Source: Reclinomonas americana ATCC 50394 (Eukaryota). Taken from it: DNA of 64,000 bases. A model generated the notes under the pieces. That model was not told where the DNA came from and did no database searches. It worked only from the letters and a program-made list of their open reading frames with translations. Location: the NCBI GenBank assembly GCA_048213135.1, contig PS015202.1:87795-151794 (forward strand), given 5' to 3'. Below are positions 79 to 64,000 of this stretch, piece by piece (the stretch's first letter is position 1; each line of letters begins with the position of its first letter). The translations under genes were made by a program, and so were the position numbers.

Positions 79-1095
79 ATGCGCGCTGTTGTTGCTGCTG
101 TGAGTGCTCTCGCTCTTTTACTCTCTGTGCTCATGGCGTCGGCTGCACTGAAGTCGGAGATTGATCCGTCGCAAATCAAGATTGTGTTGCGTGGAGTCCG
201 GAGGTCACTCTCTCTCTTCTGTGCGCTCATTGTTATTATTGTCACACAGTGGATGTTACGCGGAGAAGAGAGCGTGTGTGTGAGTGTGTCGAGAGTGCTC
301 ACATTGATCATGCAGATCATCATCACATCTACTATCTTCCGCTCAATGATGGTCCGTTCTCTCCTGCTCTCTCTTTTGTCGCTCTCACTCTGTCAATGAC
401 CTTGCTTGTGAAAAACAGCCTCTCGTGCGACGGCTTATGCCTTGCGTGAGAAGGCCATTGCGCTGTTCCCGTATGCGCACTGGGATGAGGTTTCTGCAGT
501 CGTGTTGTTGACTGAGTGGCAGGGGGTCAGTGACTGACTGACTGTGTGTTCGCGCAGTCACCCTTCCATGATGGACCTGTCGGACCGCACACACTGCCCA
601 TGGTACACCGTCCCCACTCGCACTGTCTCTCCTGTGTGCCTTCTGCTTGCTCACCACTGCTTCTCCACACACACAGTTCAACATTGACATTCGGTGACAA
701 CTTGTCTTTTATTCCTTCCTTCCTTCTGCTCCGATCTCTCATCGACGATGCGCTGTGTTTCGTGTGCAGCGACGATGTTCCGCGCGATGTGTGGCAGATT
801 GTGTACGACTGGTGTGCGCTGAACCGCGGCGACTTCTCCGTGCTCATTCACCCGCTGACGGACCCGTTCAACCACACGATTGAGATCCTGCAGGTTTTGT
901 TGTGCTTTCCTCTCCCCTCTGTTGCCCGCACACTGGCCTGTCTCATCTCAATCCCTGTTGTTGTCGATTGCAGCACACGCAGTGGGTGCGTCCTGCCTGC
1001 ACAGCTCGTACTGCTCTTTCTCCTCCTTCTCACTTGTTTGTGCACAGGCGTCGTGGATGGGCGACAAGGTGCCGCTGGACATTGCCAATCTGTGA
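79..1095 (+). CDS. DOPA 4,5-dioxygenase family protein with N-terminal signal peptide (about 9 exons)
   Basis: The spliced translation reads MRAVVAAVSALALLLSVLMASAA...IVGYHHHIYYLP...GPVGPHTLPMFNIDI...WCALNRGDFSVLIHPLT...HTQWASWMGDKVPLDIANL*. It carries the YHxHIY, GPVGPH, SVLIHP and W-x-G-x-x-x-P-L motifs typical of the family. All introns are GT-AG. Confidence 0.8.
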
Positions 1096-1233
1096 AGCGC
1101 GTCAACGATTACACGGCATTCGTTCATTCTTAACGCACAGTCACGGCGCCGGCTGGGTTCCCGTTTTCAACAAAACACAAACATTAAATTACACATGTCC
1201 ACCACTCTCAGCGCAGAGAGCGGGGGGTTTTTT

Positions 1234-4200
1234 CTAAGCGCGTGCCACCTCCAGTGCCTGCAACAGTTTCTCCACCAGGGTTCGCTTGTCCGAGTAACCG
1301 GGAATGGTGAGCAGGCGGAAGGCAGGCATGGCTGTGGGCAGCCGGTCACAGCCATTGTCGGTAAACACCACCTTCATGTGCCTGGACAACGAGGGGAGAG
1401 AGAGGGAGAGGTGAGCACGGCGACGCCGCTAAAACCAGCAAGCGCCATCACACCAGCCACACTAACCGCTCCATGTAACCCCACGGCTCCGGCAACCTCG
1501 GCATACCCGACACGAAACGCAAAAGCAGACTCAGAATCGTCGAGTCGCACTCGAACAGGAACTGCATCGTGCGTGAGTCACAGCAATTCTCCATGACGAA
1601 CACACACACACGCACGCACTCACCTCGTCAAACCACGACATGATCTCTGGGTGCGGATTACCCAGCGGCACCTTGCGCATGTTGTCCAGCAGCGCCGCCG
1701 CATGCACGTGTCGCGAGCCCTCCAGTGCCACTGCAATGTCGCATCCCTGCAAGGACGACAGGGCGCGATCGACCGGCGCAATGCAGCCGAGTGCCTCGCG
1801 CAGCTTCTCGTAGGCACGCCAGCGACTCGTGCCACCCACCAAATACTCGTAAATCATGACAATGACTGCGAGCTCGGCACCGACGCCTGTGGTTACATAA
1901 AAAAGTGAGCGGGTGAGAAGGTGTGACAGGCTGCAACGCCAACGCAACGAGTAGTCATGTCAAATCTCTCGCCGCACACCACAGGCGACGGTGGCAGGAA
2001 CTCCTCCGGGTGCTCGTGGCGCAGGCCCCATCGCAGGTTGCGGGCCATGGACGGATCTGTCGGATGCAGTTGCATTGTGAGCAGGAGGGGAAGCGTGGAA
2101 GGGGAGGTGCGGACCACAACCCACCAAACGAGTCGAGGTCGCGCAGCCACATGGCCAGCTGCTGCTCGCGCCACGACGCTGGCTTGGCCTGCAATGGCGA
2201 CGAGGGAGGATGAGCATGGAACTGCAACACGTGCGAGCACAACTACTCACAATCAAATCGGCAACCGAGGTCAAATCATCGTTGCCGAGCCGCTGGCGTC
2301 TGCCATACACGGCCTCGTAGACCACCGGATGCAGCGACACCGAGGCCGAGCCAAAGTGCAGCACCGAGTAGATGATCATGTGGCCGATGCCTGCAAACAC
2401 ACACACGCACCCACCTCAGTCAGTGATCTTGGAAGAGAGCGAAAACAATGAATGCGCGCTCACTCACCCTTCCACACTCGCACAAACTCGCGGTCGCCGA
2501 GATTCGTGTCCGCCTGCCGCGCAATTACACACAACGAGCCGTCTTCGACGTCGCTGTAGACCACCAATTTGCTCTCGCGCAGCTGATCAAAGAACGCCGT
2601 GACCAGATTGACGGGCTTGGCAAACGTCTCGCCAGTAAAGTCCACCCGCCAGTCCTTCAACAGATCCTCGGGCTTCAAGTCGGCCGCCTGCTCCGCCATG
2701 TCGAAGAGAAGAGAGCGGCGCGACACGGTTACCAAGTGCAATTCCTGTGCGCCGGAAACACAGAGATATGAGCACGCAGTCGCAGACGCCACGAAAAATG
2801 TGGGGCAGACGGACCTTGGAGGCCATGGCTCTCGAGGATTCGGAGAGAACGCGACGCAGCTCGGCCAGACGCGATGCCGCCGTCATCAGCGACGGGTGCC
2901 GCCGATTGAGGTGCGGCGAGAAGTCAAACACAGGGTGCTTCAGTGCCTCGTGCACCGTCAGGCGCTCCACCGGATCCTGCACGCAAGCGTTATGGACACA
3001 GCCGGCGAACTGTAAAAGGAACAAGGATCAGTACGCAACAGCCCACAGCAAGTGCTGAATGAGGTGAGTCAGGTGGCGATTCTCCAGCTGCGGCAGCAGC
3101 GGTTTGCCATTGTGGTCGTGGTCGTACTTGGTCGGATCGAAAGAGCTGCCGTAGAACGCCTGACCCAGGCACACGCCAATGGCGTACATGTCGGCGGACT
3201 GCGACCGCGTGGTGAGACAACAGCTGCTCGTTCACATTAAAAATGATGACACACACACCGGTGCACATGCGTAGCCGGCTCGCACTTCGGGACTGCAGTA
3301 TCGTGGCATGGCGACGTAGGTGCGCAGCTTGTCGTTGCCCGACGAGTCCAGTGCCTCGAGCGCCGACTCCAGATTACATATTACAGGTCGCTCCTGTGTG
3401 TCATATAGCCATGCACGAATCAGCAATCGCGCACCGACACCTCACTCAACAAAATAAGCGACGCAACATAGGTGTCGAACACAATGCTGGTGAGCTTGAT
3501 GGCACGATGCACAATGTCGAGATTGTGCAGCGACGACAGCGCCGACAAAATGTCCCAGAAAGCTGCCACAATGACGGAAGCAGGTCAGCGCGTGCGTGCG
3601 TCAGTGAGCGATATCAACGACGCACCTCGCAGCGCCTGCTGCTGGCCCTTTGGATTGCGCAGGTCGAGCTTCAGCAGGTAGTCCTCCATGGTGCCATTCG
3701 GGTACCATGGCTGCTGCAAGAAGAGCGCCGGTCCGTCCATGAAATAGCCACGCACGGCGGCCAAACCGCGGTGACGAGCACGGTGCAGCATGGCCAGTTC
3801 TGCGAGTTGAAGCCACATCAGCACCAATCTCTGTCGAGTATCATGAATCCGTGGATGCAAACAAACCCGAGTCCAGCTTCTTCTTGCGCGTCGCCGGATA
3901 GGCCTTCAGGCAAAAGTCTTCGTCGCCAAACGTCACGTGGAAGACGGTGCCGGCGGAAATCACCTCGACCAACTTGTAGTCGGCGAATCGGCGATCCAGC
4001 TCGAGTGCACCCGGTTGCGGTTGCACAGTCATCCCGCTGCCTACAGCAGGTGATGCGAGTGGGGTGGGCGGCATCAGATCGGTTCCCACATCGCTACGCA
4101 TGCGGTGGCGCAATGCCGTGTTGCGGTACACGGTGCGGATGACGAAATCGTCGTCGGAGAAGAGGTCGCCGAGTTGCATCATGTTGATGTACACGCACTT

Positions 4201-7114
4201 GTCGCAGAACAATTCGAGAGCGCCGAGTTTGGCGGCCTCCACCGCCCGCTGAAACGCATCAGGAGACAGTTAGCTGATGCTACTATGCTTGTGTGTGTAC
4301 GAGATGCACACACACCATGAGCGAGCCGTGACGCTTGCCGCGCACAACATTCAACAAGTCCATGGTGTCCGCAAGCTGGCGGTTGAGCTCCGCTTCCCGG
4401 ACACTAATGTCGGGTGACCTGTTTGATCGGGGCGGGGGCGAGGAGTAAGGAATAACACGACAGGCACTGGGGCGCATCACGTGAACAAGCTGACCTCCAG
4501 TGTCGTCGGTCAAACTCCAGCTTGCGCTTCTGGCCCTCAATCGCAATGATGCGATCCTCCAGATACGGTTCCTGCTCGTCGAGGTTGCTCATGGCCAGAC
4601 GCACGGCACGCAGTGTGTCCACCGTGTGCGTCACGCTGTTCATCACCTCTGTGTGTGCGACGACGCAAACAGTGAGCACGAGTGCTGTGCTTGAAAACAG
4701 CGACAGCCGCACCTTTGCGAATGAGCTTGATCTGCTGATGCATGTAGGTGACCATGGTGAGGGGCTCGGTGGAGCTGGCGCGATTGCGCGTCAGCTGCGT
4801 CAGTGCCTGCCACGTGAGCATGCACAGCTCGCCACCAATCACTCGCTCCTCATCCTCGCGCACAGTAACCTCCTTTAGAGCGGAGGCGCCGAGGTCGCGC
4901 AGCCGCGCAAATGTCAGGTCGTGCAAACCGCTGACACACTCGGGTGGATTCGGGTTGGGTGCCAGGCGATCTTCAATGGCACCACGCGCCTCGAGGACAT
5001 CGGCCCACGGGACGAGGCGCTCCTCGATAATCTGCATCAGCTTGGTCGAGTCTGCCAGCAGCACATCGGCCGCATCGCCAATCTTGCGGAACAAGTGATC
5101 GCGCTCGTGTTTCGCTGTCACCAACACCAATCGTCAGTTCGTGGCGCAATTCCCCCTGCCCTTCCTCCCTCCCTCCTCCACAACCCCAACTCACCCTTGG
5201 CATCCAACAAGCCGGCTCGGATAAACTCTTGTGTCAGCAATTCGCGATGTCGTCGCAATTCGGTAGTCATGTCCTCAAATCGCGCCTTGAACAGCGAGTA
5301 CAGGAGCCGGTTCTCCTCGTCAACTAATCGCGACAGAGTAATGAGAAGATAGTGAGAGAGAGAGAGAGCGTGAGGGTGGGTACTGTGACGCACAGGAAAT
5401 GTTGCGTGTGGTGACCGTCAGTCGCACATATTCGACCAGCCACTCCAGCACCGGCATGATGAGATTGTCGAGGTTCCACTGGTCGTCGGTCGGGAGTGCC
5501 TCACCGGGCGTCGGCAGCACATCTGCACAGCAGGAGGGGCGGTGAGGAGGAAACGATGAGTAGAGTCGAAGGAGGGGGGAACAGACCTTGCATGGTCATG
5601 GACTGCAGGCGCTCGAGTTCACCATCCGCCGGCAGCGCGGGCGGCGGCACCGGAGTCATGAGGGTGTCGGTCTTTGGCGTCTCGCGAATGGCGGTCGCAC
5701 TCTTTCCACCTGCAGCGGCAGCAGCAGCAGCGTACACACAATACAGAGTCAAGGGGAACAGGAACTCGCAACATGGGGGGAAAAATCAATCAACGCGGCG
5801 AAACACAAGGATATCAGTCGGCTGTCGACTCGTGCGTACAGCGTGGTGTTCGACTGCAAGCCGAGCTCCGTGTGCACGTCGACGTTGCGGGCGATCACAT
5901 CGGAGCCGTCTCGTGAGAGCGTCAGCACAATGTCTTCGGTGGCGACGCCGCTCATCTCCAATCCGACCCGGTAGTACAGCGTGTTGCTGTCGTTGGTGTG
6001 GAAGGTGACGACCTTGCACGAGCCGGCCGGCAGCGTGCCATCGTCAATCTCCACTCGCACACGAAACATGCTAGCACGCACGAAAAGAAATGTCAGCGCA
6101 GGAGCGTGCGGGTGTGTGCGTGGCGTACTGCGCGCAACTTCATGCCAGGCGCGGGAGACGGCGCCGGCGTGGCCAGTGGCGATCCGAGCGACGACCACGA
6201 GATGCGCGACGGCGAGCGCGAGTGCGTCGACGACGTAGGCGACTCGGCGTACGTCGACACGCTCGTGTTGGAGTCGCGGACACTCGGCCGACGACGGCGC
6301 GGTGGAGCTGGGAGATAGAAAACACATGAGGCATGACAAGCACGAGTGAGAGACCGTGTGTGTGTGTGTGGCGACGCAACGAGTGCGCATGTTGGCCGCA
6401 TCGCCGCCAGCCGCCGGGTCGATGATTTGCACCGACGGCGAGTGCGACGACACTGGTGGCGGCGGAGGCGGCGTCCGCTGCTGCTGCTGTGCGGCCGCTG
6501 CTTCCTCCGCCAGCTGCGCCACCATTCTCGGCGGCGGTGCCACTCTCGGTGGCGACGCCGACGAAGCCGCCGCTGCCGCTGCTGCCGCCGCACGTGGCCC
6601 ATTGTGGCCACTCATCTGGATCGCGCTATCACTCTGATGGTGCGGCAGGCCAAGAATCGGCCACAGATCCGGGTGCGACAGGCGCCGTGGCATGATCGGC
6701 TCCTCGTCCTCACGAACCGGCGCAGGCGGCGCAGGCGGCAGCTCCGACCGCCGCTGCGAGTTGCGCCGCTGCCTCTGTGCAAGTTGAAGGAGAAATTGAG
6801 ATGCGTCAATGCACACACGCACACACACACACACAATGCGAAATGTCAACCGTGTGTGTGTGTGATTACGCAACAGCACGGATCTGCGCCCACGGTGTTG
6901 CACTGGAGGGTTCATGCGACAGCTCAAAGAGGCCATCGACCGGCACACTGTCAATGGAAGTGGGTTTTGTGTGACGCGGCGGGAGTTTTGGAGGCGGAGG
7001 CGTCTTGCCCACAGCCGCCACTGCTGCGCCACTGCCCAGCGCAGCCACAGCCGCCGCTGTCAGCGTCGAGGGAGGCGCACTGTGGCGGTGATGGTGCGGA
7101 GCCGCCGACGCCAT
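1234..7114 (-). CDS. Multi-exon protein: low-complexity N-terminus, Ubl-like domain, coiled coil, pseudokinase and degenerate HECT domain
   Basis: Kinase motifs: FCLK, LAELAML, PWYPNGTMEDYL, IVHRAIKLTSIVF, VICNLESA, YCSPEV, SADMYAIGV, DPVERLTVHEALKHPVF. HECT motifs: VSRRSLL, DLLKDWRVDFTGE, LRDLDSFDPSMARNLRW, LLRFVSGMPRLP, RLPTAMPAFRLLTIPGYSDKRTLVEKLLQAL. ATG at 7114, TAG at 1234-1236. Joins in the 4000-6400 region were not all resolved. Confidence 0.75.
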
Positions 7115-8350
7115 TGCTTCTCACGCTCTCTCTTCGTCGCAGTGTGTGTGTGGTTTGGCGATGATTGCGTGTGATGAAGGTGAAATTTGCACTTTTTTCC
7201 GCTTTCCGACTCTCTTGCGCGGTGCGTTTACACAACAAGGCGCGTCGTGTTGTGTAAATCGTCATCAAAGTGATAAACCCTTCGTGTGCCGCGGTGGGCG
7301 CCTGATAAAGCAAATTTGCTTCTGCTTTTTGCGTATCGTTCGCTGGCATTTGGAGACATTACAAAGGTGCGGGGGAATTCACTTAGCCACTGTGAGGCTT
7401 ACAAGAGAGAGGGGGGGGGATGATTTGCGTCGAGAGAGAGGGGGGAACNNNNNNNNNNNNNNNNNNNNNNNNNNNNNNNNNNNNNNNNNNNNNNNNNNNN
7501 NNNNNNNNNNNNNNNNNNNNNNNNNNNNNNNNNNNNNNNNNNNNNNNNNNNNNNNNNNNNNNNNNNNNNNNNNNNNNNNNNNNNNNNNNNNNNNNNNNNN
7601 NNNNNNNNNNNNNNNNNNNNNNNNNNNNNNNNNNNNNNNNNNNNNNNNNNNNNNNNNNNNNNNNNNNNNNNNNNNNNNNNNNNNNNNNNNNNNNNNNNNN
7701 NNNNNNNNNNNNNNNNNNNNNNNNNNNNNNNNNNNNNNNNNNNNNNNNNNNNNNNNNNNNNNNNNNNNNNNNNNNNNNNNNNNNNNNNNNNNNNNNNNNN
7801 NNNNNNNNNNNNNNNNNNNNNNNNNNNNNNNNNNNNNNNNNNNNNNNNNNNNNNNNNNNNNNNNNNNNNNNNNNNNNNNNNNNNNNNNNNNNNNNNNNNN
7901 NNNNNNNNNNNNNNNNNNNNNNNNNNNNNNNNNNNNNNNNNNNNNNNNNNNNNNNNNNNNNNNNNNNNNNNNNNNNNNNNNNNNNNNNNNNNNNNNNNNN
8001 NNNNNNNNNNNNNNNNNNNNNNNNNNNNNNNNNNNNNNNNNNNNNNNNNNNNNNNNNNNNNNNNNNNNNNNNNNNNNNNNNNNNNNNNNNNNNNNNNNNN
8101 NNNNNNNNNNNNNNNNNNNNNNNNNNNNNNNNNNNNNNNNNNNNNNNNNNNNNNNNNNNNNNNNNNNNNNNNNNNNNNNNNNNNNNNNNNNNNNNNNNNN
8201 NNNNNNNNNNNNNNNNNNNNNNNNNNNNNNNNNNNNNNNNNNNNNNNNNNNNNNNNNNNNNNNNNNNNNNNNNNNNNNNNNNNNNNNNNNNNNNNNNNNN
8301 NNNNNNNNNNNNNNNNNNNNNNNNNNNNNNNNNNNNNNNNNNNNNNNNNN

Positions 8351-9258
8351 TTTGGCCTTGACCACAAAGGGCGCCGAGTGAATGACCAGCATGCGGTGCG
8401 CGGGATCCGCCGCATCGGCCACCGTCAGTTCCAGACGGAAGCGCGAGCCCTTGTGTCGCGACGACTGCGTGCGCAGCGTCAGCGCGCTCTCGCCCTCGTA
8501 CACCGACTCGCCACTGCATCGGCTCAGCGCAAACGACACGTCGCCCTGCAGCGGCGGTGGCTCGCACACCACATCAGCGCCCGTCTCCGTAATCAACGAC
8601 ACATGCACCACCGCCGAGTGTCCACCAGGCAGCAAACTGTTCAGCCCATCCACGCGCAACAGCAGGTGCGACGAGTATGGCGCCGAGTACTGCACATCGG
8701 CACTGCAAACAACGTCCGTCCATGAGCGTCCACAATGCTATTAATGCACACGCCAGACAACAACAACAGAAAAACGCAACAGATCAGTGGAGAACTCGGT
8801 GCGCTGCTGGCGAGCCGACTTGAAGAGCACCTGGAACGGCACCGTGTAGCCTGCACGCACAAAGGAGCGTGTGAGCAACACAGTCTATTTCAGGTCGAAC
8901 ATTGTCGCGCGTCAAAGCAAAACTCACCGCCCACAAGCGTCCAGCTGCCCACCTCTCGCGCAGCGGCTGGTGGCGCTGGTGGCGGTGGTGGTGGTAGTGG
9001 TGGCGCACACCACACAGCAGTCGACGAGGACAAGGCGGCAGGCGGCAAACACGTGGTGGGCGGTTGCGAAGGCATAGGCGGTGGTGGTGGCATCGACATT
9101 GGTAGCGCCACTAGCGGAGGCGACGCGCTTGTGAAGCCATCATCATCGTCACCAAAGCCGCCGCCAAAGCCAAAGTCGTCGTGTGGTGGTGGCGGTTGGT
9201 GATGGTGATGGTGCATGTTGGCCCACCAGCCGCCGCTGTCCAGGTCGTCGCTGTTCAT
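8351..9258 (-). CDS. Partial gene (3' end in gap): His/Pro-rich N-terminus plus possible CudA-like Ig-fold DNA-binding domain
   Basis: MNSDDLDSGGWWANMHHHHHQPPPP... is followed by the exon ...LTLRTQSSRHKGSRFRLELTV...IHSAPFVVKAK, which resembles the S-x-x-H...F-x-L...S-x-P-F-x-V-x-x-K pattern of CudA-type transcription factors. The family assignment is by eye only. Confidence 0.45.
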
Positions 9259-9450: not shown

Positions 9451-9473
9451 GAGAGGAGAGAGAGTGAGAGAGA

Positions 9474-9745: not shown

Positions 9746-10962
9746 ATGCGCGCGCGTGTTTCGCTCCTCCCCCTCTCCCTCTCCCTCCTCCTCCTGCTGC
9801 TTGTCGCCGCCGCCGCTGCTGCCGCACCACGCCCGTACCGCGGCACCCTGTTTGCCGCCTCGTGGAACGTGTACGACAAGCCGCACTTTGACAACCGAGT
9901 GGGTTCGCTCGACGTGCATTCCTCCGGCAACTTTACGCAGCCGTGGCTGACGGCGTTCCCGGCGGCGAGTGATGCCACCACGGCCACGGCCATGAGTGCG
10001 CACTCGCTGCTGCTGTACGCGGAGCCGACCAGTGCGCGTGAGAGCGCCATGTACGTGTTGAATGTGACGCAGTCGCAGCAGGAGTTGCGCGTGGTGCACC
10101 GCGTGACGCCGGCCAAGAAGCTCGACGATGTGCGCTGCGCGCAGAGTGTGAGCGAGGAGCTGTCGGCGCAAGAGTGCTACGGCTTGTTCCAGGGACCGGT
10201 GGGCACCAGCGACCAGAATGCACTCATGCGCCTGGATGTGCGCACCGGCGCCGTCAGCACTGTGATGTCGCTGGCGGACTGGGATGGGTGGGAGATGGAT
10301 GCCTCTGCGTTTGACACGCAGCGCCGCCTCTTCCATGTGGTGCTGTCGAGGAGCATTCGCGAGGTGAGATCGAGACACCGACCCCCACTGCTGCATTTCT
10401 TCTCTCCTCATTGTTCCTCCTGCGCGTGCGCGTGTGCGTGCAGGGTGCTGCGGCCGATCGCGACGGCGCAGACTTCCCGCCGCAGTATACTCTGGAGCTG
10501 GTGACGATTGACGTGGTGGCGGGCAAGGTTCTCGCCGAGGTGGGCGTGGCGCGCCAGTTCGCCGGCCCCATGTGCGTGGATGAGCGCCTCGGCTTGATCA
10601 CACTCGGCAGCGAGCAGGGCCTGACGCTGGCGTTGGTCGACTGGCACACAGTTGCGTGCAGCATGCTACGCGCTCGTGCTCCTGGTGAAACTCAAACTGA
10701 ACACAAACTCTGCGATGTGGTGGTAATACAGGGCGCGGAGACCTCGCTGTACCCCGACAAGATCGGCTACCCGTCGCCGTACGGTGCGGCCTGCGAGAGC
10801 GGCTTCCTGGCAGCGTCGTACATTGACGCCGTGCACCACACGAACAAGCTTGTGGTGTTCGACTTGTCGACCGCCTCCGCCACATCGCCCGCCACCATCA
10901 CCTCCATCGTCGACAGCGCCATCGATACGCATGCCTACGCGTTGACCAAGGATCCGCAGTGA
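9746..10962 (+). CDS. Secreted protein of unknown function, possibly beta-propeller-like (3 exons)
   Basis: Signal peptide MRARVSLLPLSLSLLLLLLVAAAAAAA. Repeated 'LMRLDVRTGAV / LVTIDVVAGKV / LALVDWHTGAE / LVVFDLST' strands. Introns start at ~10364 (G|GTGAG) and 10651 (A|GTTGCG). Confidence 0.65.
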
Positions 10963-47938: not shown

Positions 47939-48561
47939 ATGGCCTTCCGTCTCCCTCTCACTGCACTTGCTGTTGCCTTTGTGCTGGGCATGCTGGCTGT
48001 CGACTTGACCATGGACAGTCACGGTGACGACGTGGCCACGCGCGACATTCCTCTTCTCTACTATCGCGGTCACCGCACTGCGCAGTTCCCTCACAACATC
48101 ACCATTGTGCTCGTCATTGTGTTTGGCGCGGTCTCGCTCATTGTCAACCTGGTCAAGAAGCGCTCGCTGGTGTTGGACTCGGTGTCGGCGGTGTTCATGA
48201 TGTGAGTGTGTGTGCATGCATGCAAGAAGGTGATGATGATGCACATGCATGCATTCTGACTCGCATCTGCAGTGTTGGACTGTATGGCTTTGTCGGTGTG
48301 CTCATTCCAGTTGCGCGAGTGCTGTGCACACTCTCTTGTAGTCTCGTGTGTGTCTCCGCTCATTGTGTGTGTGCGTGCGTGCAGGCGCAAGAGGCGATCA
48401 AGAGCCTGTCGCCTTCCGATCCGTCACTGGCTCCCTTGCTCGTCCTCGTTCAGCAGTGGCACTACATTATGGTCGCCTTGATGGTGCCGGTCATGGGCCT
48501 GCAGATTGCGTCGCATGCCCTCCCCGCGACCGGTGGCAAGAGCAAGCCGCATGCTCACTGA
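47939..48561 (+). CDS. Small four-TM membrane protein, possibly Shr3-like ER chaperone
   Basis: Three exons giving hydrophobic segments AFVLGMLAVDL, IVLVIVFGAVSLIV, LDSVSAVFMIVGLYGFVGVLIP and HYIMVALMVPVMGLQIA, with a basic C-terminal tail. The Shr3 resemblance is by eye. Confidence 0.5.
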
Positions 48562-50624: not shown

Positions 50625-52967
50625 CTATGCCTGCGGAACAGTGGTCAGCAGAGCGAGGAACACGGTGCACCAGAGCGGCATGGTGCACACGGCACACTGT
50701 TCGTGATTGATGAGCGACTTAACAACAGCAGCAGCAAGCAATCGGAGTGTCACACAACAATCATCTGCCAGAAGAGCAGCTCGGCGGTCTCGTCCTTGTT
50801 GAACTTCAACAGTTGAGACATGGTGCTCAACGCCACTGCGCGCATTCGCATCGATTGAACAACGACGTAGATATAGCCTCAGTGTCTGGCATCGACCACT
50901 CACCAGCAGTGGGCGTCGCCGTCTCCACCATCAGCACGAAGAGGATGAGACGATCCGACGGCAGCACGCCGATTTTCCACATTGTGTACACGAGGGTGGT
51001 GAGCACGGCTGGCATCAGCAGCTGACGGCCAACTAGTGAGCCCACAATGAACTTGATGCGCAGACCGCGCCCGTCGTTCTCCACTGCTGCAGCGGGAGCC
51101 GGAGGATTTGACGACTCCGCAGGCGACTGCTGGGGATGCTCCTCGGGGCTCTCGCCCCCGGCAAGTCGTCGGCCCTTGGGTGTGGGCGGCGGCTGGTTGT
51201 CGGGCGACTCACCGTCCATGGCAACCATCTCCACATCTCGCTCGCCTGCCTCCGATGCTGGTGGTGGCGGTGATGATGCGCGGTCACGTTGCTCCTGCTC
51301 TCGTCGCTGCTTGCGAGCACGCCACTGCGTGCGGAAGGTGACCGCCAGGGCGCCACCGAGACTGAGCATGGCGACCAGCACAAACGAGTCGCCAGTGATG
51401 TACAAGGCCGACATCTGCACCGTAGCTGGTGAGCGTTGTGAAAAGAAAAGAAGGGTGAGAGGAGAGCGACAACACACCAGTGGCCGCAACAGCAGCGGTG
51501 GCTGTGTGGTCAGTCGCTTCAGGGGGCCAATCATGCCCACAAATACACCAATCAGACTCGACAGCGTAGGTGGCTTGGTGAACAGCTTGAGAATGGGCAG
51601 GACCTTGGTGCGGAACGTGGACGGTGCTGGACCGTGAGGCGCGCCAGCACCGTCGGCGCCATCTGTGCGAGCGTGACTCAGACGGAGGCATTAGCTGGGG
51701 GCGCGACACAGGGTGCACACGTACCTTGCAACTGCGCATACGATGTGGCCGCACTGGGGCCGGCCGGTGGCGACATTAGTATGTAGCCGACGACCCACGG
51801 CAGAATGGCTCCGAGAATGGTGACCAGAGAAATGTATCTGCAACACAGACGGTGAGTCGACACACAGTCTCTCGTTCTGCAAGTGCAGTGAACCGCACCC
51901 CTTGGCCAACTTCTCGAGTTCGGGAATGGTCAGTCCATACACCGAAAAGATCTCACTCGTTACCGTGGCTGCACGAGGGGCACAGGAGATGATGAGTCAG
52001 ATGATCGATGTGTTGGTGTGGCAGCGACTTGACCGATACGAACCAAGCACAATGACCAGCGGCAGGTTGCCTGGTGCACACGATCAGTGGTGAGGCACGT
52101 GACGAGCTTCCGCATGCGAGCGACACGCCAAACCTGCATTGTTGAAGATGATACTGGCCACCAGCAGGCTGCGCAGTTTCTTTGGTGGTCGAACGCACAG
52201 GCGAACAAACAGCGGCACGATGAGCATGCCGACGGCTGCGAGCGGCGTGCAGGATGAGGATGAGCTCCAGTAAGAGCCTTCCCCAGGTCTCTCAGTGTCA
52301 CGTAACTGACGTACACTCCCTGGCACACAATCACCGGCCACTGCTCCGCCACGCGGCCGAGATCAAAGGTCTCAGATATCTGTGCAGAGAAAACACAAGC
52401 CTCAGCAGCAGCGAATACCGCAGCGGAGTGGAGCAAGACTGGCACCGCGCACCCGCATGAAGAGAAACGCCGGAATGACAATGTAAAACTGCACGCGGGC
52501 CATGGTCTCCGCAAACGACTCGCTGACCACATTGGAGAACACGAGGTACGCTCCTGCCGCCAGCGATAAGCAAAGTGCGGGGGCCGGCAGAATAAAAAAG
52601 AATAAAAAGATATTTCGCCCCCGAGGAGGAGTCGAACCTCTACGCCGTCAAGCGTCTACGGATTTGAAGTCCGCACACTGAACCGTCAGAGCTCACAGGG
52701 GCAAAGGAACAAATGGCAGATTCTAAGCATGGCAACAATGCACTCGCACACTACGTGCAGCGTGAAGGAAACGCGCGTGCACTTGTGCCTCTGTGTCTGC
52801 GTGTGCCTTTCTGCATGCATGTGCATGCATGGAAAGATCATCTCCGACTCACTCCGACTCTCTCTCTCTTTGTGAGATTGCTCACCGCCCGACGCCAGCA
52901 CCACGCTGAGCAACACCGACGCTGATGCATCAGCAAAGAGACTGAGTAGCACCGAGGCTGATGACAT
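50625..52967 (-). CDS. PILS / auxin efflux carrier (AEC) family transporter
   Basis: VLLSVVLASGGAYLV...VQFYIVIPAFLF, ASIIFNNA, PPTLSSLIGVFVGMIGPLK, LVAMLSLGGAL, RQLLMPAV and DRLILFVLMVETATPTA: the ten-TM PILS pattern with a central loop. Confidence 0.8.
52594..52608 (-). terminator. Pol III terminator (T5 and T6 runs) downstream of tRNA-Sec
   Basis: The minus strand reads ...GGGCG aaatatc TTTTT attc TTTTTT. Confidence 0.75.
52616..52702 (-). tRNA. tRNA-Sec (anticodon UCA)
   Basis: 87 nt, GCCCCTGTGAGCTCTGACGGTTCAGTGTGCGGACTTCAAATCCGTAGACGCTTGACGGCGTAGAGGTTCGACTCCTCCTCGGGGGCG. It has a 9-bp acceptor stem, 6-bp D stem with 4-nt loop, 6-bp anticodon stem with loop CT-TCA-AA, long variable arm, 4-bp T stem and G73: the eukaryotic 9/4 tRNA-Sec fold. 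Confidence 0.95.
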
Positions 52968-53400: not shown

Positions 53401-54373
53401 TCACTCGCTCTCGTTGAGTCGCCGGACCAACTGCGCACTCGTATCAGCACAAGAAGCAAGCTTTCCCTCAGCGATCAGCAGTCAGAACGCAACTTCGGCG
53501 AGGATTGTCGGTGCCGTGTCGAGCGTGTCGGCAATGTTCCCGAGCCTCTCGCGCATTGTCGTCAGCTCGTTCGATGATCTCTCGTAGTCCTCCGTGAACT
53601 GCACAAAGCGATCTGAGCATCGGCTCCTTCCCATCGAAGACACCCAAGTTGTACCTGTCGCAGCATGGCCTGCAGATCGTCGCGTTCTCGTCGCTTCTCC
53701 AGATACCTCTTGGCCTGCACGATCTCAGCCGGCGGCAACTCGCATGTCATTATGCTGTGCGCAGATGGATGAGAGAGAGAGAGAGAGAGCGGAGACAAGT
53801 CGTCGACAAGGGACGGAACTTGGGTCCGTCTGTCATTGCGTCGAGCATGTTGAGCTTTGTGAAGACGTCGTGCTCTTCCATGATCGTGTCCAGCTCCGTC
53901 TGCGCCACACTCATCAGCCCTCACTCCTTCACACACACTCGTCGACGTCGACAATTAAACGCACTGTGGCATGACTTCTGATCTGTTGTGCAAACTGTGA
54001 ATGCACGTCGAACATGAGCTCCTGCTGTGCCGGTGTCAAGTCGTCTTCCGCCTGTGCTCTCTTGTGCCCTGCCCGAATACACACACACAGTCAATCATCA
54101 TCGCATCGAGGTCGTCCTTGACTGTCACTCACCCACTCGCGCACATCTCGCCAAGATCTCGTCCTTATCCAACGACGGATCACGATAACACGTGCTGAGA
54201 ATGGCCTCTCGCTGCGTCTCGCCCTTTGGCATCAACACCTCCGCCCCACCCATCATATAGTCCAACGCGCGTTGGAACGCCGCTCGCAACGCGCGTGATC
54301 GTGGACCCAGATGCGTCCCACTGGTGCTGACAGTGCTGCCGACGGCCGCCTCCTCGTCTGCGGCGCTGGCCAT
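53401..54373 (-). CDS. Nnf1/PMF1-like MIS12-complex subunit
   Basis: RSRALRAAFQRAL, DVHSQFAQQIR, TELDTIMEEHDVFTKLNMLD and LPPAEIVQAKRYLEKRRERDDLQAML match the Nnf1 pattern (E-x-D-x-I-x-E-E..V..KLNxLD; P-x-E-I). Confidence 0.6.
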
Positions 54374-54804: not shown

Positions 54805-56621
54805 TCAGTGAGGTGCGCAGCGGGCATTCGGGTGGTCAGCACTCCGCGCCGTCTTCATCACGTCACGACAGCCTCTGCGGAGATGGCCACCACAGCTCCG
54901 CTGGAGGTGCCGGCGGCGATGCATGTGCCTGGGTGTGCATGCGTGTGCGTGTGAGGGAGCAGGTGAGAGGGAGGGAGGGAGGACAGTGATGGAGGACCTG
55001 AGCTGTCGACCGCCACGGCACAGATAGAGTACGAGGTGACTTCCGGATCGACGTGGGGCGGGTAGGCGTCGTCGCCACTCTGCGACAAGGTGATTGGTGC
55101 AGGCGACGGCGCCGGTCCAGTCTGTGACACAGCGCGCCGTTGCAGCTGGCGCACCACGGACTCGGTTTCGGAGAAGGGCGAGTGCGACAGCCAGAGGTTG
55201 ACACGCCCCGCCGCAGTGCCACAGGCCACATGTCTGTGTCATGAGAAGGAGTCAGGAGACGTGCGTAATATTAGAGAGCTACGCCGTGTGCTCTGCGCAC
55301 TCCCACCTGTCGTGGTGAAAGACCACAGGTCGGCAGCCCTGCGGCACCGTCGCGTTGTCCAACAGCGTGCTCGTGTTCTGCACCAGCGTGCGTTGGTTAC
55401 ACACACACACCCCAGCAAGACGACGAGACCAACAATAATACCTTGCACGACAGCAAATCCCACACTCGCAAAGTGCGATCGCCGGCCTCGGTCACCAGCG
55501 AGGTACCGTCCGTCATGCACGTCACCGAGCGAACCTGGAGTTCCGTAAGTGAGCCACGGAATAGAAGGCTGGCATTGTGAGCACGCACTCTGTACTCACC
55601 GACTCAGCGTCGTGCAGCGGCTGCTGCCCCGTGCGCCCACTCGATCGGCCCTGCCGACGACTGGCCACCGCCAGTTGGTGGGCCGGCTCCGCTCCAGCCC
55701 GCACATCGTATGTCATAATGTGGCCACCACACGCCGTGTGCAGGGCGTACGGGCACCACGACTCTGGCAGCGCCAGCGATGTGGTCTCGGCCGACAACGA
55801 CGGCCGGAAGACTTGCAACTGTTGCCTCGTTTGCACGTCCCAGTGACTGCGCTTGGATCGGTCAGCGGCTGAGATGCAAAGGAGAGCGCGTGCTCGTCGA
55901 CGCAACATTAATTGCCTGTCACCACCGCATGATACACACACCGCCAGATCGCTGCTGGCAACGCAGTCGCCAACATACGACGTGTGGCCGGCCAACCGCA
56001 CCACCGGCTTTGTCAGTGCCTCCTGCACGCACAGAAGAACCCATTCAGCTCGACTTCTCTGGCGCGAGGCAGGCATTCTCTTGCGCACCTCATTCGCACT
56101 GGCGATGTCCCACATGAGCACCGTGCCTGACGAGGAGAGTGAGAACGATGACCACACATGCGCGAGATCGGTTGATGCGATTCTCCTCACCATCCGCACA
56201 AGCTGCGACCAGCCGCGACGAGCTCCCTCCACATGTGCGCAGACTGCACTCGCCACAGTCACTCTCACAGTCCCCATTCGAGAGCACACACTAACACACA
56301 CCTGTACACAGACGACGCCAGAGTCGCTCTCCTGTGCTCCGCAATGTTGTGCGCGGCCACCAACTGCCACGCATCGCCACTCACCAGTGGCGCGCGCATC
56401 AACCGCACAGTGCCACCAAAGTCAGCCACAGCCAGCAGCTCGTGTCCATCCAGTGCTGCGGTGGTGCTTGTGATCAGTGTCACATGGTGACAGAGAGAAC
56501 GAGGAGAGCAGACGCAACAGCGACAGAAGCACATGCTGGTGACGGCATCGACGCTGCTGTCATCCACACGCACCACACGTGAGCGCGCGAGTCGATCACA
56601 CACCAACTCGGCGGCGCTCAT
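54805..56621 (-). CDS. WD40-repeat protein
   Basis: LLAVADFGGTVRL, GTVLMWDI, LAGHTSYVGDC..SCGGDRQLM..WDV, DGTSLVTEAGDRTLRVWDL and ACGTAAGRVNLW. Confidence 0.72.
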
Positions 56622-58365: not shown

Positions 58366-60567
58366 TCATGTTCGTCGCTGCTGTTGTGGTTGATGGTGCT
58401 GCTGTTGGTGGTCGTGGGAGCCGTGCAGTACGCCCAGCTGACGCAGCTCATTCTGCAGTGTGGTAAAATTGGTGTGCGACGCTGCCAGTTCACGAGCGTG
58501 CCGCTCCTTGCTCTCCGCCAAGTCGGCCAGCAGGCGCTTGTTGGTTGCCGTGAGGCTCCTACTCACACCAATGAGCTGCAGGAGAACTTTCGAGACATGC
58601 CAGGAACGACTCGGCAACGCAACTCATGAGCCTCGCGAAGCATGGCGACAACTTGCTCACCCAGCCGCTCCTTGTTCCTTCCCGACTGCTCCATCCCACG
58701 TAGTCGCTCATTCTCCGCCCGCAACACCGACAGTTCCTGCGCTTGCAGCTCCTGCACCACACCATCACATACACAGCATGTCAAGAAAAAGTGTGCACAC
58801 TGTTTTCCAACGGGAGACACATCATCTGCTCCACGAAACAGCAGTCTCCACGGCAGCGCGCAGCTTGCTCTCGGCAGTGGCTGCCGAAATGCGCTCGGCC
58901 TCCAGCTGGAACTGCTCGTTTGCCCGTAACCGCTCGTGCTGCTTGGCAAACTCCTCCGTGGCATCGGCCCTGCCGGCTTGGTACAATCGGCGGAACACAC
59001 TCTTCACAATCACTGCAGTCTCGTTTGGTCGACGGCAGAGGCCACAGCAAGGGCGAGAATGAAATACGCACCACGCAGAGTGCCATTCTCCGACACCGCC
59101 GCACCACTGTGTCGATTCTCCTGCACGGCCAGCTCGATGGCCTCCAACAATTTCGTCTCCAGCTCCGCCACATCGCTCGGCAAGTGCTCATCACTGACAC
59201 CGACAGAGTGGTGGGCCCACTGCACAGCGGTAGTCGTGAGTATGATCCTCCTGATGGAGATCCACACCTCTCCGCACCTCATGTAATCTCTTTTGCGGTG
59301 TCAGTGTACTCAGTGGCGCCGAAGCAGAGGCAGTGGTGCCATCGCCAGCACTCGTGCCGAGCACACGACGTGCGCGAGCCGCCGCCTGGCGAATGCCCTG
59401 TCGTGAGGATGACAGTCCGTCGTCTTCGTCGCCATCACCGTCGCTGTCGCTGAGTGCCATCACTGTGTCGGGTGACTGGAACGACATTGCGCCACGACCG
59501 TCGTTGCCAGGCGCACGTCGATCACGCGCCCTCGGCTCCATGGTCTCATCTGCTCATGCGTTTGTCGGCGTGAGTTGGCGAACAGGCAGTCGACTTGTCT
59601 CAAGCACAGGCACAAACACACACGCACATCTCCTGCGGTCCAACTCTGCCAGCCGCCGCTCTGCTTCGAGTGTAAGTGAGCGATCCACAGTGTCGAGCAG
59701 TCGCTGGCGACCGCCAGCACCCTCCCCACCGCTCATCCACGACGAATCTGGCAACGAAGCACGCCGGTCAACTGCCGCCGACGCAGCTGCCGCCTTGACC
59801 TTCTTCAGCTTCTTCCCACCGTTGGCGACTGCGGCCTTCGGTGGCGGTTCCGCCAGCTCACGCAACCGCGACGCCACTGCAGCCTTTCGCGTTCTTTCCG
59901 GCCTCTTTCCACTCTCATCCGCCGACAACGATCGTCGCACGGCATCGCCACCGACCATGCGCGACGCAAAAGCCGGCACACTCAGTGGCGCCGGCGAGAA
60001 CAACGTGAATGTATCGCCCTCATCACCGCGACCCCACGCACTCGGCTCCAGGCCCGAGATCGACGACACCTCACCATCATCGTACTCGTCCTCGTCATCA
60101 TCGTCGTCATCGTTATCCTCGTCGTCCTCGTCGTCGTCTTCAGAGGAGCGCCATGCCAGTCCAGACTGCTCACCCGAGTCCGACACCTCCTCACCGTTGC
60201 GTGGACGCCGGCGTTCACCAGAGGTCGCACGAGAGGCCTTGCCACCACCACCACCACTGCGCTTCTTCACGCGACCGTTCGGTGCAGTCACGCGGCGTTT
60301 CGACGAGCTGCGTGCGGGCGTTTGAGTGGACAGCATCATCATCATCGCACAAGTCACACACACACACCCGTACGAGTCTGCGTGCACTGACGGCACCATG
60401 ACGGTGGAGGTGAGACGTGGTCGTGTGACACCGTTGCCATTGGACAGTGTTGTCGTCGTTGTCGTCACAGTCCCTCCCGTGACTCGCGCGCCCATGCGAC
60501 GTGTCGTGCCGGTGCCGCTGAGCATCGAGCGCGAGAGCGGCTGTGACGCCGACGAACCGCGCTGCAT
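58366..60567 (-). CDS. Uncharacterised protein with acidic low-complexity region and C-terminal coiled coil
   Basis: Starts MQRGSSASQP, has a D/E tract, then heptad exons (LSVLRAENERLR, LLADLAESKERHARELA). Confidence 0.55.
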
Positions 60568-60676
60568 TTCTTTTGTTTTCGCGCGCAAACAAGTCGGACA
60601 GGACAGCGAAGGCCATGGATTACTGCTTATTATATGAGGAGGGAGCGCGACCATGCGTCATCTCCACAGTTGCCAT

Positions 60677-63600
60677 TTACGATCGGGTGTCGTACTCAAA
60701 CGATGTCAACGAGCGACGTCGCATGAGATTTTTCAGCGGCGCCTGCTGCTGCGAGTTGTCGGAGCCGGATGGTGCGGCAGCGAGGCGATCGGTGCGGGCC
60801 TCATCGGCATCGACATCATCGTCATTGTCGTAGGGGGTGTCGACGGGAGTCGGAGTCGGCGACGGCGAGGTGGGAGTCATGGAGCGGACATCTGGCGACA
60901 AGCGTCGGCGCTTGAGCGCCTGCTGCCCGTCGCTGCCGCCGTCCGCATCGTGCGCCACATGCATGACATGGCGGTCGGCGTCGCCCGTTTCGGAGGCATC
61001 GGACCGCCGTTTGCGCTCACGTACAGGCACGTCCGCGGGCGGCGTATCCACCGGACTGGGCGACGGCAGCTCGCCTCTGGCGGCGGCGGCGGCTGCGGCT
61101 GCTGCTGCTGCGACTGCCGCCGAGGTGCGAAGCACCCGACGACGGCGCAGTACCGAGTGCGCGCTCCGACCCTCCTCCACAAACTTGAATGCCTCGAGCC
61201 GATCGAGTGAAACCGCAGACTGCAGCGCAGCCGGTGGCGGGGGCGGAGGAGGAGGAGGAGGAGGAGGAGAAAGAGGCGACTGTGGAGGTGGTAGTGCTGC
61301 GCGCGTTGGTGGAGCGGTGGGAGGAGACACGCCGATGGCGCCTCCAAGACGCCCCCGTCGCTCCTCCCGGCCCGTCACTGCAATGTTCATCACGTCGGTG
61401 GGCGCCAGCGGTGCTCGATGCCGACGATGCTGTGTCTGCGACAAGGACGACGACGGCGAGGGCGTTGGTGTCGAGGGCGACGGTGAGGCGGAGCCAAGAA
61501 CGCCGCCCAGACTGTCTTGCGACAGGTGGCGTCGCGAGGCACTGCTGCCTCGGTCGTCCTCATCCTCATCTTCACCGTCGTCGTTATCGCCACCACCGCC
61601 CCGAGCATCGCGATCGTTCACCTCCGTGCTGTCGTCTGCAAAGCCTGCTGCCGGCGTCGTCACCTCGTCATCGTCAAGCGTCGCCGCAGCCTCTCCATAG
61701 TCTTCCAGTGGTGTGCGCGCTTCGGTGACGGCGTCTTGTGCACGGAACGCAAAGCGGGCCAGCAGCGCGCCAATGGGTCGTCGCCTGCCTCGCGACACAG
61801 AACCGTCGGCACCACTCGGCGTCGTCGATGGTGAGCGCTCCTCGCCGTCAGAAAGGGGAGACGACTCGCCGAGGCCGGAGGTGGTTCGGCGTGGCAAAGT
61901 CAGTCGCATTGCAGCTGTCTCGCTCACGGCCATTGCAGCAGTAGCAGTCGTGGTGGTGGTGGATGTCGTCGTCGTCGTTGAGGCGGTCGTTGTGAATTCG
62001 GCCGCTCGATACGACAATCGCCCCGAGAACAGGTGCGACACGTTGACCAGCGGCGAAGTCGGCGAGGCGGCCTGCAGCAGCGGTTTCTGTTTCTGCCACC
62101 AGTGAGTCTCTCTGTGATGGTCGCAGCAAAGCAGATGGACTCCACACCTGCAACGGTCGGTTCTCGTCGTGCTGGAAGAACCGACTGCGTCGTGCAGTGG
62201 CCGACTGTGGAGTGGTTGCGGTGGTCGGTGTAGAGTCAGCGTCGTCTGCGGAGCAAGTGAGCGCAAGAGGGAGACAGTGTCTGTCGTACAGAGGAGGAGG
62301 GAATGCAGCCGCACCGGAGCCTGGGGTGTCGACACTGAGTGGCGACGGAGGTACAAAGGGTCGTGAGGCGCCGCTCGGACGACTGACGGCAGCTGTTGAT
62401 GGAATAGGAGATGGTCAGCAGAGCGAGCGGGGGAAAAGAGGGAAGAGGCAGCAACCGGTAACAGTAACACCACGCACTCATGTAGTTGAAAATGGTGGAG
62501 CCGGCACGGTCGATTGGCAAGCGCAGCGACTTGCGCTCCGCAGGCTGGTCGGCCAGCAATGTGGGACTTACCACCGTGGCCACCGACGGACCGGCTCTCC
62601 TCTGCAGCGACTTGGAGACTGGCTTGCGCGGCACTGCCACCCACCCACCAGACTTGTCCATCGACGACAAGGCCGGTGGCGACGGTGCTGCCGATGCAGC
62701 CGCTGTTGCGGTGGTGGTTGTTGTTGTTGTTGTTGTTGTCGACGTTGAGTCGGAAGGTGCCGCATGCGTGGTGCCTCCTAACCTCTCCTCGGCCAACACC
62801 CTGCGACTGGTTAAGCAATAGAGGAGAGAGGAAAAGAGAGGGCAGTAACACAGGCACTCAACTCGGCAAACGGCCGCATCGATCGCGGCTCCAACTCGCC
62901 ACACACGAGTGCGACCGCCGTCTCCTTGTCCAGCATTTCACCGACAAACTCCAAGTCGTCGGTGCCCAGCAAGCTCTCGTCTGGCTCCGAGAAGTGACAC
63001 AAGCGCTTGGCTATGGGATCAAAGACCACCTGGTAGCGAAACACCAACTCTGCGCGACGGAATTCGTCGGCGTACTCTCGTGGCACGGTGATGCGGTGGT
63101 CGAATTGCAGTCGCGCCAGCACACGGTCCACCTCGCGGTACTGCTGCACCATCTGGTGTGCCTTCTTGATGCCCACATTGTGAATGTTGGGCAGGTAGTC
63201 GCACCCACAAAAGATGCACAGACGAGTGATCATGTCGGGGGTGAACGACGCAAACGACAGCTGCTGATTGGCGCCAAGCATCTGCCACCAACAACGTGAG
63301 TCGCCTCTCTCCTCGCTCTCCTCTCAGGCACACACACACACACAGAGCGAGTGCAGCGTGCCTTGTACTTGAGCTCCTGCGCCTCGCCATCATTGTTCAT
63401 CTTGAAGAGGATGCGCCGGCACTGGTACGCCACCAAATCACTGTCTTCGGTGATCACCGCCTCCACATAGTCGGTGTTGCACAGGTACGCCAGCTGCGCA
63501 TCGGCCTCATACGGCGCCACCATGAACTCCACACCCTCAGCACGCAGCGCCTGCTGGAACGCATACGTCATGCCCGCCGTGACCTCAATGCCCTTGCGGA

Positions 63601-64000
63601 AGCACTCGTTCGCCTGCCCAGCAGCAGCACACACATTCACGACAAGTCCTTGTGCGGCGCCAATCATGACACGCGCGCGTAACTTCCTGCGCACGTCCCT
63701 CGCGCAGCAGTGCCAGTCCGCGCTCTCGTCCTTCCTTGCGCGACTTGTTGCGTCCCTCGTTGGTGCCGCGCTTGGCCGGCAGTGGGCGCCCATCAAACAC
63801 AATCACTGGCACCACATTGTGATGCCGCAAGAGACCCACCATGCGCATGCAGTATGCCAGGTATCTGTGTGAGTGTGTGAGAGTGTGTGGGTGGGAGCAG
63901 AGGGGGGAGTGGTGGAGGTGAAACTTGGTGGACGGCATGTTGAGGCACAGTTCGCGCGCGCAGGCATATGCGCCCCTGTGCAGCCACGCAGACGCATCCA
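60677..64000 (-). CDS. EXO1: Exonuclease 1 (XPG/FEN1 family), 5' end outside the window
   Basis: VIVFDGRPLPAKRGTN, VAPYEADAQLAYL, ITEDSDL, CIFCGCDYLPNIHNVGIKKA and FRRAELVFRYQVVFDP, followed by a long disordered tail. Confidence 0.92.

Follow-up and report, generated by a model that had tools for sequence, protein, structure and literature searches.

The window analyzed here, a stretch of 64,000 nucleotides (nt) from Reclinomonas americana ATCC 50394 (assembly GCA_048213135.1, contig PS015202.1, positions 87,795 to 151,794 of the forward strand), carries introns that begin with two kinds of 5' splice site (donor). The window is eukaryotic nuclear DNA of ~57% G+C, in which genes are dense and split by short introns with a median length near 70 nt and a CTCAC/CTCAT/CTGAC-type motif ~20 nt 5' of a CAG acceptor. 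Class A comprises G/GTGNG-type or GT[AG]NG donors (the slash marks the exon–intron boundary), and class B comprises GTTGCG-type donors with T at intron position +3 and G at +6. Class B is very probably a real and common donor class, to which roughly one-fifth to one-quarter of the window introns (about 15–30%) belong. The introns that it starts are true spliceosomal introns with GT-AG ends and belong to the ordinary U2 type. The mechanism is a more tentative matter: the statement as a whole, that U2-type class-B introns are read one base over by a non-standard U1-type RNA, has in our judgment slightly less than an even chance of being right.

A preliminary description of this DNA had proposed the two classes, with class B as a routine rather than a rare one, and had listed 28 class-B sites. 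The motif given for each lies on the strand given for it at all 28 positions, always as N/GTT, and none of the 28 follows an exon-final G. Twenty-two of them read GTTGCG and two read GTTACG (255 and 63683; single coordinates give the first intron base), and the single-copy variants are GTTGTG (41243), GTTGAG (62862), GTTTCG (46928), and GTTTCA (63924). The exceptions named with that list, G/GTTGCG at 44251 and T/GTGAGT at 48202, are likewise present; T/GTGAGT at 2250 and A/GTGCGT at 53964, for which no strand had been given, are present as well, but on the minus strand only.

Introns were called by two gene parses. The blind parse was a dynamic-programming gene parse that used three-periodic coding potential, open frames, GT/GC...AG ends, a branch motif with YAG, and intron length, and that scored donors on GT or GC only, with no donor motif and no exon -1 base; its output was 121 introns, many of which are surely wrong. 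The donor-model parse was the same parse plus a donor model and gave 146 introns. The results of the blind parse revealed that GTTGCG was the commonest donor hexamer, starting 17 of the 121 introns vs a share of 1.12% among the GT sites of the two strands (binomial P 4.7e-14). The narrow class-B census of this parse was 17 GTTGCG, 3 GTTTCG, and 1 GTTACG. Class B accounted for 18/121 introns in the blind parse and 32/146 in the donor-model parse, which bears out both the existence of two classes and the routine use of the second. Of the 28 listed sites, 13 were recovered by the blind parse, 22 were recovered with the donor model, and 8 were fixed by protein homology.

The window contains 92 GTTGCG hexamers, 29 of which are donors in the donor-model parse; at least five donor-like sites (38731, 41548, 49038, 55906, and 56518) were missed by that parse. 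In a model-free test, GTTGCGT was followed within 25–135 nt by CT[CG]A[CT]...YAG at 27 of 38 sites, compared with 2115 of 8116 for all GT (26%), 8 of 38 for the reverse complement of GTTGCGT, and 18 of 51 for GTTGCG[ACG]. The difference between the first and the last of these values indicates that the signal is the heptamer with T at +7. The density of GTTGCGT is 6.2 per 10 kb in the window vs ~1 per 10 kb in 29 unrelated eukaryotic contigs. With eleven sites found beyond the earlier list and with the heptamer signal, the observation of class B is confirmed to be stronger than first stated.

Eight class-B or class-B-like junctions are fixed exactly by homologs or Pfam profiles in the genes for pirin, two CAP-Gly proteins, EXO1, and VPS26C, the conserved motifs of which had been invoked for this purpose in the preliminary description. 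For these checks, spliced models were aligned with homologs fetched by single-exon queries, and at none of the eight junctions was there an alternative in-frame GT. In the pirin gene, all five junctions are gapless against 20 homologs: (i) the class-B donor A/GTTGCGG (41542–41548, minus strand), which follows a 19-nt exon, restores DPFLMLD/HLGP; (ii) the class-B variant A/GTTGTGT (41237–41243, minus), chosen by the donor-model parse, restores GGTME/GFQLW; (iii) the class-B donor C/GTTGCGT (40650–40656, minus), chosen by the blind parse, restores FVMNT/REE; and (iv) the remaining two are the class-A comparators G/GTGAGCC (41633–41639, minus) and G/GTGCGAG (41004–41010, minus). In the VPS26C gene, the class-B donor A/GTTGCGT (43553–43559, minus; blind parse) gives a gapless YRPG/DTVSG against 19 homologs. 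The comparators in this gene, all on the minus strand, are the class-A donor G/GTGCGTG (43465–43471), which follows a 21-nt exon and is gapless, the class-A donor G/GTGAGCT (42706–42712), with no gap at the junction, the gapless G/GTTTGTG (42478–42484), which combines T at +3 with G at -1 and at +5, and the non-consensus G/GTCCGCA (43201–43207), which is gapless against 18 homologs. To judge from this last site, the exon-side AG appears to be the main signal at some donors in this window. The two very short internal exons, 41549–41567 (minus; 19 nt, pirin) and 43472–43492 (minus; 21 nt, VPS26C), both lie in gapless alignments, and each is flanked by one class-A and one class-B donor.

The two CAP-Gly genes (24669–25328, plus strand, and 19731–20045, minus strand) lie on opposite strands ~5 kb apart and have an intron at the same GKNDG codon. 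The donor is T/GTTGCGT in both, at 25141–25147 (plus; blind parse) in the first gene and at 19894–19900 (minus) in its paralog, and it is placed by the continuity of PF01302: at both junctions the upstream exon ends at profile position 36 and the next exon starts at 38, the split codon being position 37. Both introns of these old paralogs start with GTTGCGTCA, and the remainder of the intron has diverged. We count this in favor of the reading proposed here, since the kept start suggests that the class-B motif may be under selection. In the EXO1 gene, the class-B variant A/GTTACGC (63677–63683, minus; blind parse) shows no gap at the junction against 21 homologs, and the atypical donor A/GTTTCAC (63918–63924, minus) is gapless against 18 of the 21, the other three having insertions of their own. 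A further variant claimed in the EXO1 tail, A/GTTGAGT (62856–62862, minus), is present as a motif; the parses chose 62857 or 62851 instead, and the region is not conserved.

These junctions, with no alternative in-frame GT at any of the eight, make it extremely improbable that many class-B sites are mis-modeled or chance motifs whose true donors are nearby GT sites. The same conclusion is favored by the enrichment in a parse that was blind to the motif, by the strand specificity of the heptamer test, and by the excess of the heptamer over unrelated eukaryotic contigs. An artefact of this kind would agree, however, with the fact that the blind parse missed 15 of the 28 listed sites, that GTTGCG is common inside predicted exons, that 38731, 32033, and 62862 are supported by neither a parse nor homology, that 255 is in no parse, and that 186 and 255 together need a 5-nt exon.

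The two classes differ at the exon end. In the blind parse, G occupies -1 at 2 of 18 GTTGCG/GTTACG donors vs 35 of 49 GT[AG]NG donors (Fisher P 1.3e-5). The association of +3 T/+6 G with a non-G exon end, which had been put forward as a test of the preliminary description, holds within the window: the combination is found at 20 of 68 donors after non-G vs 3 of 53 after G (P 9e-4), and exonic decoy GT sites have no such link (60/1507 after non-G vs 14/502 after G, P 0.27). Among homology-fixed junctions, G is at -1 in 0 of 8 class-B-like sites vs 6 of 6 others (P 3.3e-4), in genes that were chosen for containing class-B sites and thus say nothing on class frequency. Measured against the codon-position background (n = 32), the class-B -1 position has 3 G vs 10.5 expected (P 0.0018), 12 A vs 6 expected (P 0.009), and 12 T vs 6 expected (P 0.009).

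Position by position, 72 class-A donors were compared with 39 class-B donors, G at +5 in class A and T at +3 and G at +6 in class B being fixed by the selection of the sets. At -1, class A has G in 72%, and class B has A in 38%, T in 41%, C in 13%, and G in 8%. Class A has G at +3 in 93%, a free +4 (A 35%, C 35%, T 31%), T at +6 in 65%, and G at +7 in 50% with the rest mixed; class B has G at +4 in 95%, C at +5 in 95%, and T at +7 in 79%. The free +4 of class A has as its slid counterpart the +5 of class B, which is C in 95%, and class B is therefore not merely class A read one base over. Among donors with T at +3 in the donor-model parse, the conserved G is at +5 when -1 is G (7/7) and at +6 when -1 is not G. 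A third, smaller donor type is seen here, with T at +3 and G at +5, which follows G in all 7 cases of the donor-model parse. G/GTTTGT-type donors, in which an exon-final G is followed by an intron with T at +3, lie at 42478–42484 (minus), 3860–3866 (minus), 19724–19730 (minus), and 32650–32656 (plus). A pyrimidine at donor position +3 is uncommon in most eukaryotes.

Downstream of the donor, class-A and class-B introns are alike. The median intron length is 71 nt in class A and 70 nt in class B (Mann–Whitney P 0.59), the branch-to-acceptor distance is 19 nt and 20 nt, respectively, and the CTCAC/CTCAT/CTGAC motifs are common to both. A [CT]T[CGA]A[CT] branch motif was found in 28 of 31 class-B introns (median 20 nt from the 3' end) vs 59 of 71 class-A introns (19 nt). 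All parsed class-B introns start with GT; their acceptor is CAG in 29/32 and TAG in 3/32, and neither acceptor sequence nor base composition differs between the classes. Sixteen predicted genes contain both. The GT/AG ends, the branch motif near the acceptor, and the exact restoration of the protein at eight junctions are all features of U2-type GT-AG introns. An introner-like mobile origin was considered and rejected, because the matches listed among 30 trimmed class-B introns were only 13–17 nt long; those listed among trimmed class-A introns (n = 66) were 12–13 nt. After donor recognition, class-B introns would be handled at the branch site and 3' end by the machinery that also serves class A.

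Pairing with U1 small nuclear RNA (snRNA) was assessed by duplex folding of each donor, in any register, against the canonical U1 5' end, which was assumed to be AUACUUACCUG. The 72 class-A donors gave a mean duplex energy of -7.0 kcal/mol and were separated from decoys with an area under the curve (AUC) of 0.87, whereas 32 class-B donors gave a mean of -1.5 kcal/mol (-1.5 to -1.75) and an AUC of 0.32; the mean for 400 exonic decoy GT sites was -2.7 kcal/mol. G+1 pairs with U1 C8 in 61 of 72 class-A duplexes. In class B, it is unpaired in 21 of 39 duplexes and paired with C9 in 5 of 39. The minimum-energy pairing of CA/GUUGCGU is the shifted register, in which G+1 pairs with C9, U+3 with A7, G+6 with C4, and U+7 with A3, but at only -1.4 kcal/mol; the value for CU/GUUGCGU is +0.5 kcal/mol.

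The preliminary description had explained class B by a shifted register, with G+1 as a stand-in for the missing G-1. Part of this explanation stands: a slide fits the motif, GUUGCGU being GGUGCGU with one base changed, as well as the excess of A and the shortage of G at -1. The mammalian mechanism, in which U1 is unchanged, does not agree with an AUC of 0.32, and the equal enrichment of T at -1 is unexplained by the slide. We therefore consider it unlikely that one standard U1 reads GUUGCGU in the +1 shifted register, with U1C/LUC7 or U5/U6 proofreading offsetting the weak helix. The minimum-energy pairing of CA/GUUGCGU, the exon-end preferences, and the move of the conserved G from +5 to +6 at +3 T donors when -1 is not G are all in its favor, and the shifted register was demonstrated experimentally in human cells (Tan et al. 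2016; PMC4856993). However, the helices of -1.4 and +0.5 kcal/mol compare with -6.5 to -6.8 kcal/mol for the human shifted-register example in Table 2 of that paper. Furthermore, class B scores under decoy GT sites, C at +5 is mismatched to U1 position 5 and yet is 95% conserved, A, which could pair there, is almost never seen, and T at -1 cannot pair with U10.

A bulged-U register would keep G+1 and U+2 paired with C8 and A7, bulge out U+3, and place GCGU at the usual +3 to +6, with a likewise arrangement on U6. We regard this as very improbable, even though GUUGCGU equals the class-A core GU-GCGU plus one inserted U and human sites with a bulge register at +2/+3 have been described (PMC4856993 and PMC9311317). 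Such a register leaves C9 free, so G at -1 should be favored, as it is in class A (72%); its depletion to 3 of 32 argues against a simple bulged-U register. Duplex folding with canonical U1 did not choose the bulge register for the consensus, and this register does not account for the preference for C at +5. A further alternative, in which GUUGCGU is recognized directly and independently of U1, either by a sequence-specific protein or by the U6/U5 tri-snRNP, as an extreme form of a split between exon-side and intron-side sites, appears improbable. Canonical U1 pairing of class B is indeed negligible, and the anti-correlation of G at -1 with the intron-side motif matches the AG//GUNNN vs NN//GURAG split described in PMC11732430. 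By contrast, GUUGCG misfits the complement of the ACAGA box, GURAG, in the normal register, class A carries both G at -1 and G at +5, so that the two sides are not traded off as usual, and no candidate protein was identified.

Our best guess is that an altered or variant snRNA, which the preliminary description had also suggested, fits class B better than an unchanged U1 read one base over. Among 256 variants of U1 positions 5–8, AUACG[U/C]AACUG separates class B at an AUC of 0.98. One altered U1 for both classes was rejected as the best model, because no variant at positions 5–8 exceeded an AUC of 0.85 for both. In the model that we propose, the class-B motif would be read by pairing one position over, with the intron G+1 taking the place of the exon G-1. 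The partner would be an altered or second U1-type RNA with a 5' end complementary to GUUGCGU (predicted core ACGCAAC), and it would work beside a standard U1 that serves class A. Put in its strict form, this model has two parallel 5' splice-site systems acting on otherwise identical U2-type introns, a standard U1 for G/GUGNGU and a second U1-like snRNA for GUUGCGU; this form is possible, although somewhat on the improbable side. The second snRNA would then serve about a quarter of introns, possibly with a matching change in U6 docking.

Several points weigh against reading class B as a donor class served by a non-standard U1. All counts come from 61.5 kb of sequence, and 20 of the 28 listed sites come from gene models alone. 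GTTGCG is not depleted in predicted exons, where 25 copies were seen vs 12.3 expected, and the hexamer alone is therefore not sufficient as a signal; GGTGAG is likewise not depleted (18 vs 17.9 expected), which makes exon avoidance an uninformative test here. The folding used unmodified U in place of pseudouridine, and the AUC of 0.98 is partly circular, the best variant being the complement of the motif. T at -1 is enriched as much as A, and no pairing model considered here explains it. The proposed reading would, moreover, require U6 to tolerate a 5' splice site that is slid or mismatched. To our knowledge, the 5' end of U1 is close to invariant among eukaryotes, and the variant U1-like RNA is purely a prediction.

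Class B resembles several known systems in part. A shifted (+1) U1 register at atypical human 5' splice sites was reportedly described by Roca and Krainer in 2009, and bulge U1 registers are said to have been described by Roca et al. in 2012. U12-type introns are a case in which a second, more rigid 5' splice-site motif with its own snRNA occurs beside ordinary introns in the same genes. A U12-type assignment was rejected for class B, because the RTATCCTT donor and the TCCTTAAC branch motif are absent and the donor is GTTGCGT; moreover, unlike U12-type introns, class B has branch motif, spacing, and length in common with class A. The human shifted-register sites share with class B a GU after a non-G exon end and a G+1 that can replace G-1 opposite C9 (PMC4856993). 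They are, however, a rare class, compared with ~15–30% of introns here, and form a stable helix with standard U1 (-6.5 kcal/mol in Table 2 of that paper, vs -1.4 kcal/mol or worse for GUUGCGU); the class-B motif is also one rigid heptamer, with a C at +5 that this comparison does not explain. The bulge or asymmetric-loop registers, as described in PMC4856993 and PMC9311317, are similar in having one extra nucleotide near +2/+3, but they keep the pairing of G at -1, of which class B is depleted.

The exon-side AG//GUNNN and intron-side NN//GURAG classes of 5' splice sites (PMC11732430) are again two sequence-separable classes with G at -1 and the intron-side consensus anti-correlated, as found here by both exon-end tests in the window (Fisher P 1.3e-5 and P 9e-4). 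The intron-side class described there reads GURAG, whereas class B reads GUUGCGU (T at +3, G at +4 in 95%, C at +5 in 95%, and G at +6) and class A is strong on both sides. Human variant U1 (vU1) genes with altered 5' ends are reported (PMC3561869 and PMC10870369) and could pair with non-standard donors. The human variants are minor species that are not known to serve a major intron class, whereas the variant predicted here would serve a large share of introns. In the literature, no donor class was found among the matches listed for GTTGCG/GUUGCG as a splice signal, judged by titles and abstract starts, and no protist variation was found among the matches listed for U1 snRNA with ACUUACCU.

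The other donor sites were placed by gene models. On the plus strand, the blind parse chose the class-B donors A/GTTGCGT (45808–45814) and A/GTTGCGA (45954–45960) in an LRR gene, A/GTTGCGC (48310–48316), and, in a Mis12-like gene (PF05859), C/GTTGCGT (44402–44408) together with the exception G/GTTGCGT (44251–44257), both outside the part matched by PF05859. The donor-model parse chose T/GTTGCGT (40111–40117), the variant T/GTTTCGT (46928–46934) in a mitochondrial carrier gene, both flanking exons of which match PF00153, and A/GTTGCGT (10651–10657), the last in this parse only. A/GTTGCGT at 38731–38737 is present as a motif, and no branch-like motif with YAG was found downstream of it. A long proline tract of CCA/CCG repeats (36594–36960, plus) extends over several small exons; the introns between them are 74 nt long, both starting G/GTACGATT.

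The DOPA-dioxygenase-like gene (133–1095, plus) was modeled manually with nine exons, an open frame of 136 residues, and one exon matching PF08883. The model needs a 5-nt exon (250–254, plus) and a 12-nt exon (974–985, plus), the former lying between two class-B-type donors: T/GTTGCGT (186–192, plus), found by both parses with a predicted acceptor, and the claimed T/GTTACGC (255–261, plus), which follows the 5-nt exon and has the frame of the manual model as its basis. The combination of donors 186 and 255 with this exon is a putative arrangement drawn from frame logic alone. A homolog search of the representative library with a 41-residue exon of this gene returned two spurious repeat proteins and no usable homologs.

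On the minus strand, the listed sites chosen by the blind parse are C/GTTGCGT (1942–1948), T/GTTGCGT (3033–3039) in a kinase-like region, and T/GTTGCGT (6868–6874). Those chosen by the donor-model parse are T/GTTGCGT (3461–3467) in the same kind of region, C/GTTGCGC (16374–16380), T/GTTGCGT (17189–17195), A/GTTGCGT (17541–17547), and A/GTTGCGT (53487–53493). The exon upstream of 3467 matches the kinase catalytic loop, and the exon after it has no match; single-exon Pfam and PDB searches did not fix the junctions at 3467, 3039, and 1948. The new class-B donors from the blind parse are C/GTTGCGT (6374–6380), A/GTTGCGC (6132–6138), and A/GTTGCGT (58617–58623), along with the new exception G/GTTGCGT (17894–17900). 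From the donor-model parse came T/GTTGCGT (8774–8780 and 16733–16739), a further exception G/GTTGCGT (28864–28870), A/GTTGCGT (30142–30148), and, both within poor gene models, T/GTTGCGT (50165–50171) and the variant T/GTTGTGT (50752–50758). Three T/GTTGCGT sites on this strand are candidates: 49032–49038, with a branch motif and a YAG ending 66 nt downstream, inside a longer parsed intron; 55900–55906, with a branch motif and YAG at 60 nt, sharing its acceptor and frame with the parsed donor 55939; and 56512–56518, with a branch motif and YAG at 63 nt.

Seven runs of N with 2477 bases in total (7449–8350, 20168–20873, 27734–28155, 28920–28975, 29743–30093, 31864–31883, and 33067–33086) interrupt several gene models. 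Two claimed class-B introns are among those affected, that of 30148, which extends across an N gap, and that of A/GTTGCGC at 32027–32033 (minus), where the motif is present and the intron extends across a 20-N gap. An Rfam scan of the window (gathering threshold and E<=1) did not find U1, U2, U4, U5, or U6, and the only credible RNA gene in it was a tRNA-Sec (52617–52702, minus; RF01852, 72.3 bits, E 7e-13). This gene lies inside a 332-nt parsed intron, and the gene model there is therefore probably wrong, or the tRNA is nested within a gene.

The closest protein relatives found were 68% identical overall for pirin, 65% identical over the 141-residue query exon for VPS26C, and 56–60% identical for EXO1. 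The pirin relative (P0002) and the VPS26C relative (P0241) are proteins from short assembled contigs and may come from one related, unsampled lineage. The gene call of P0002 begins exactly at the MLD of the pirin class-B junction motif. A metagenome scan with an EXO1 exon returned 29 loci and no close relative among them; the best identity was 52% in the best segment, with the exception of a partial 47-residue match at 68% identity (locus L029), and no GTTGCGT-rich locus was found among the 29.

Gene finders trained on GTRAGT-type donors will mis-annotate about a quarter of the introns here, including those around the 19- and 21-nt exons, which depend on class-B donors. Few features of eukaryotic gene expression are as conserved as the U1 5' end and the GURAGU-type donor. 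A large share of introns starting with a motif to which standard U1 cannot pair would mean one of two things: a second or altered snRNA can re-code the recognition of 5' splice sites, or many introns can dispense with U1 pairing. Should two parallel systems indeed operate on otherwise identical U2-type introns, they would add a third way of recognizing intron starts to those of the major and minor spliceosomes.

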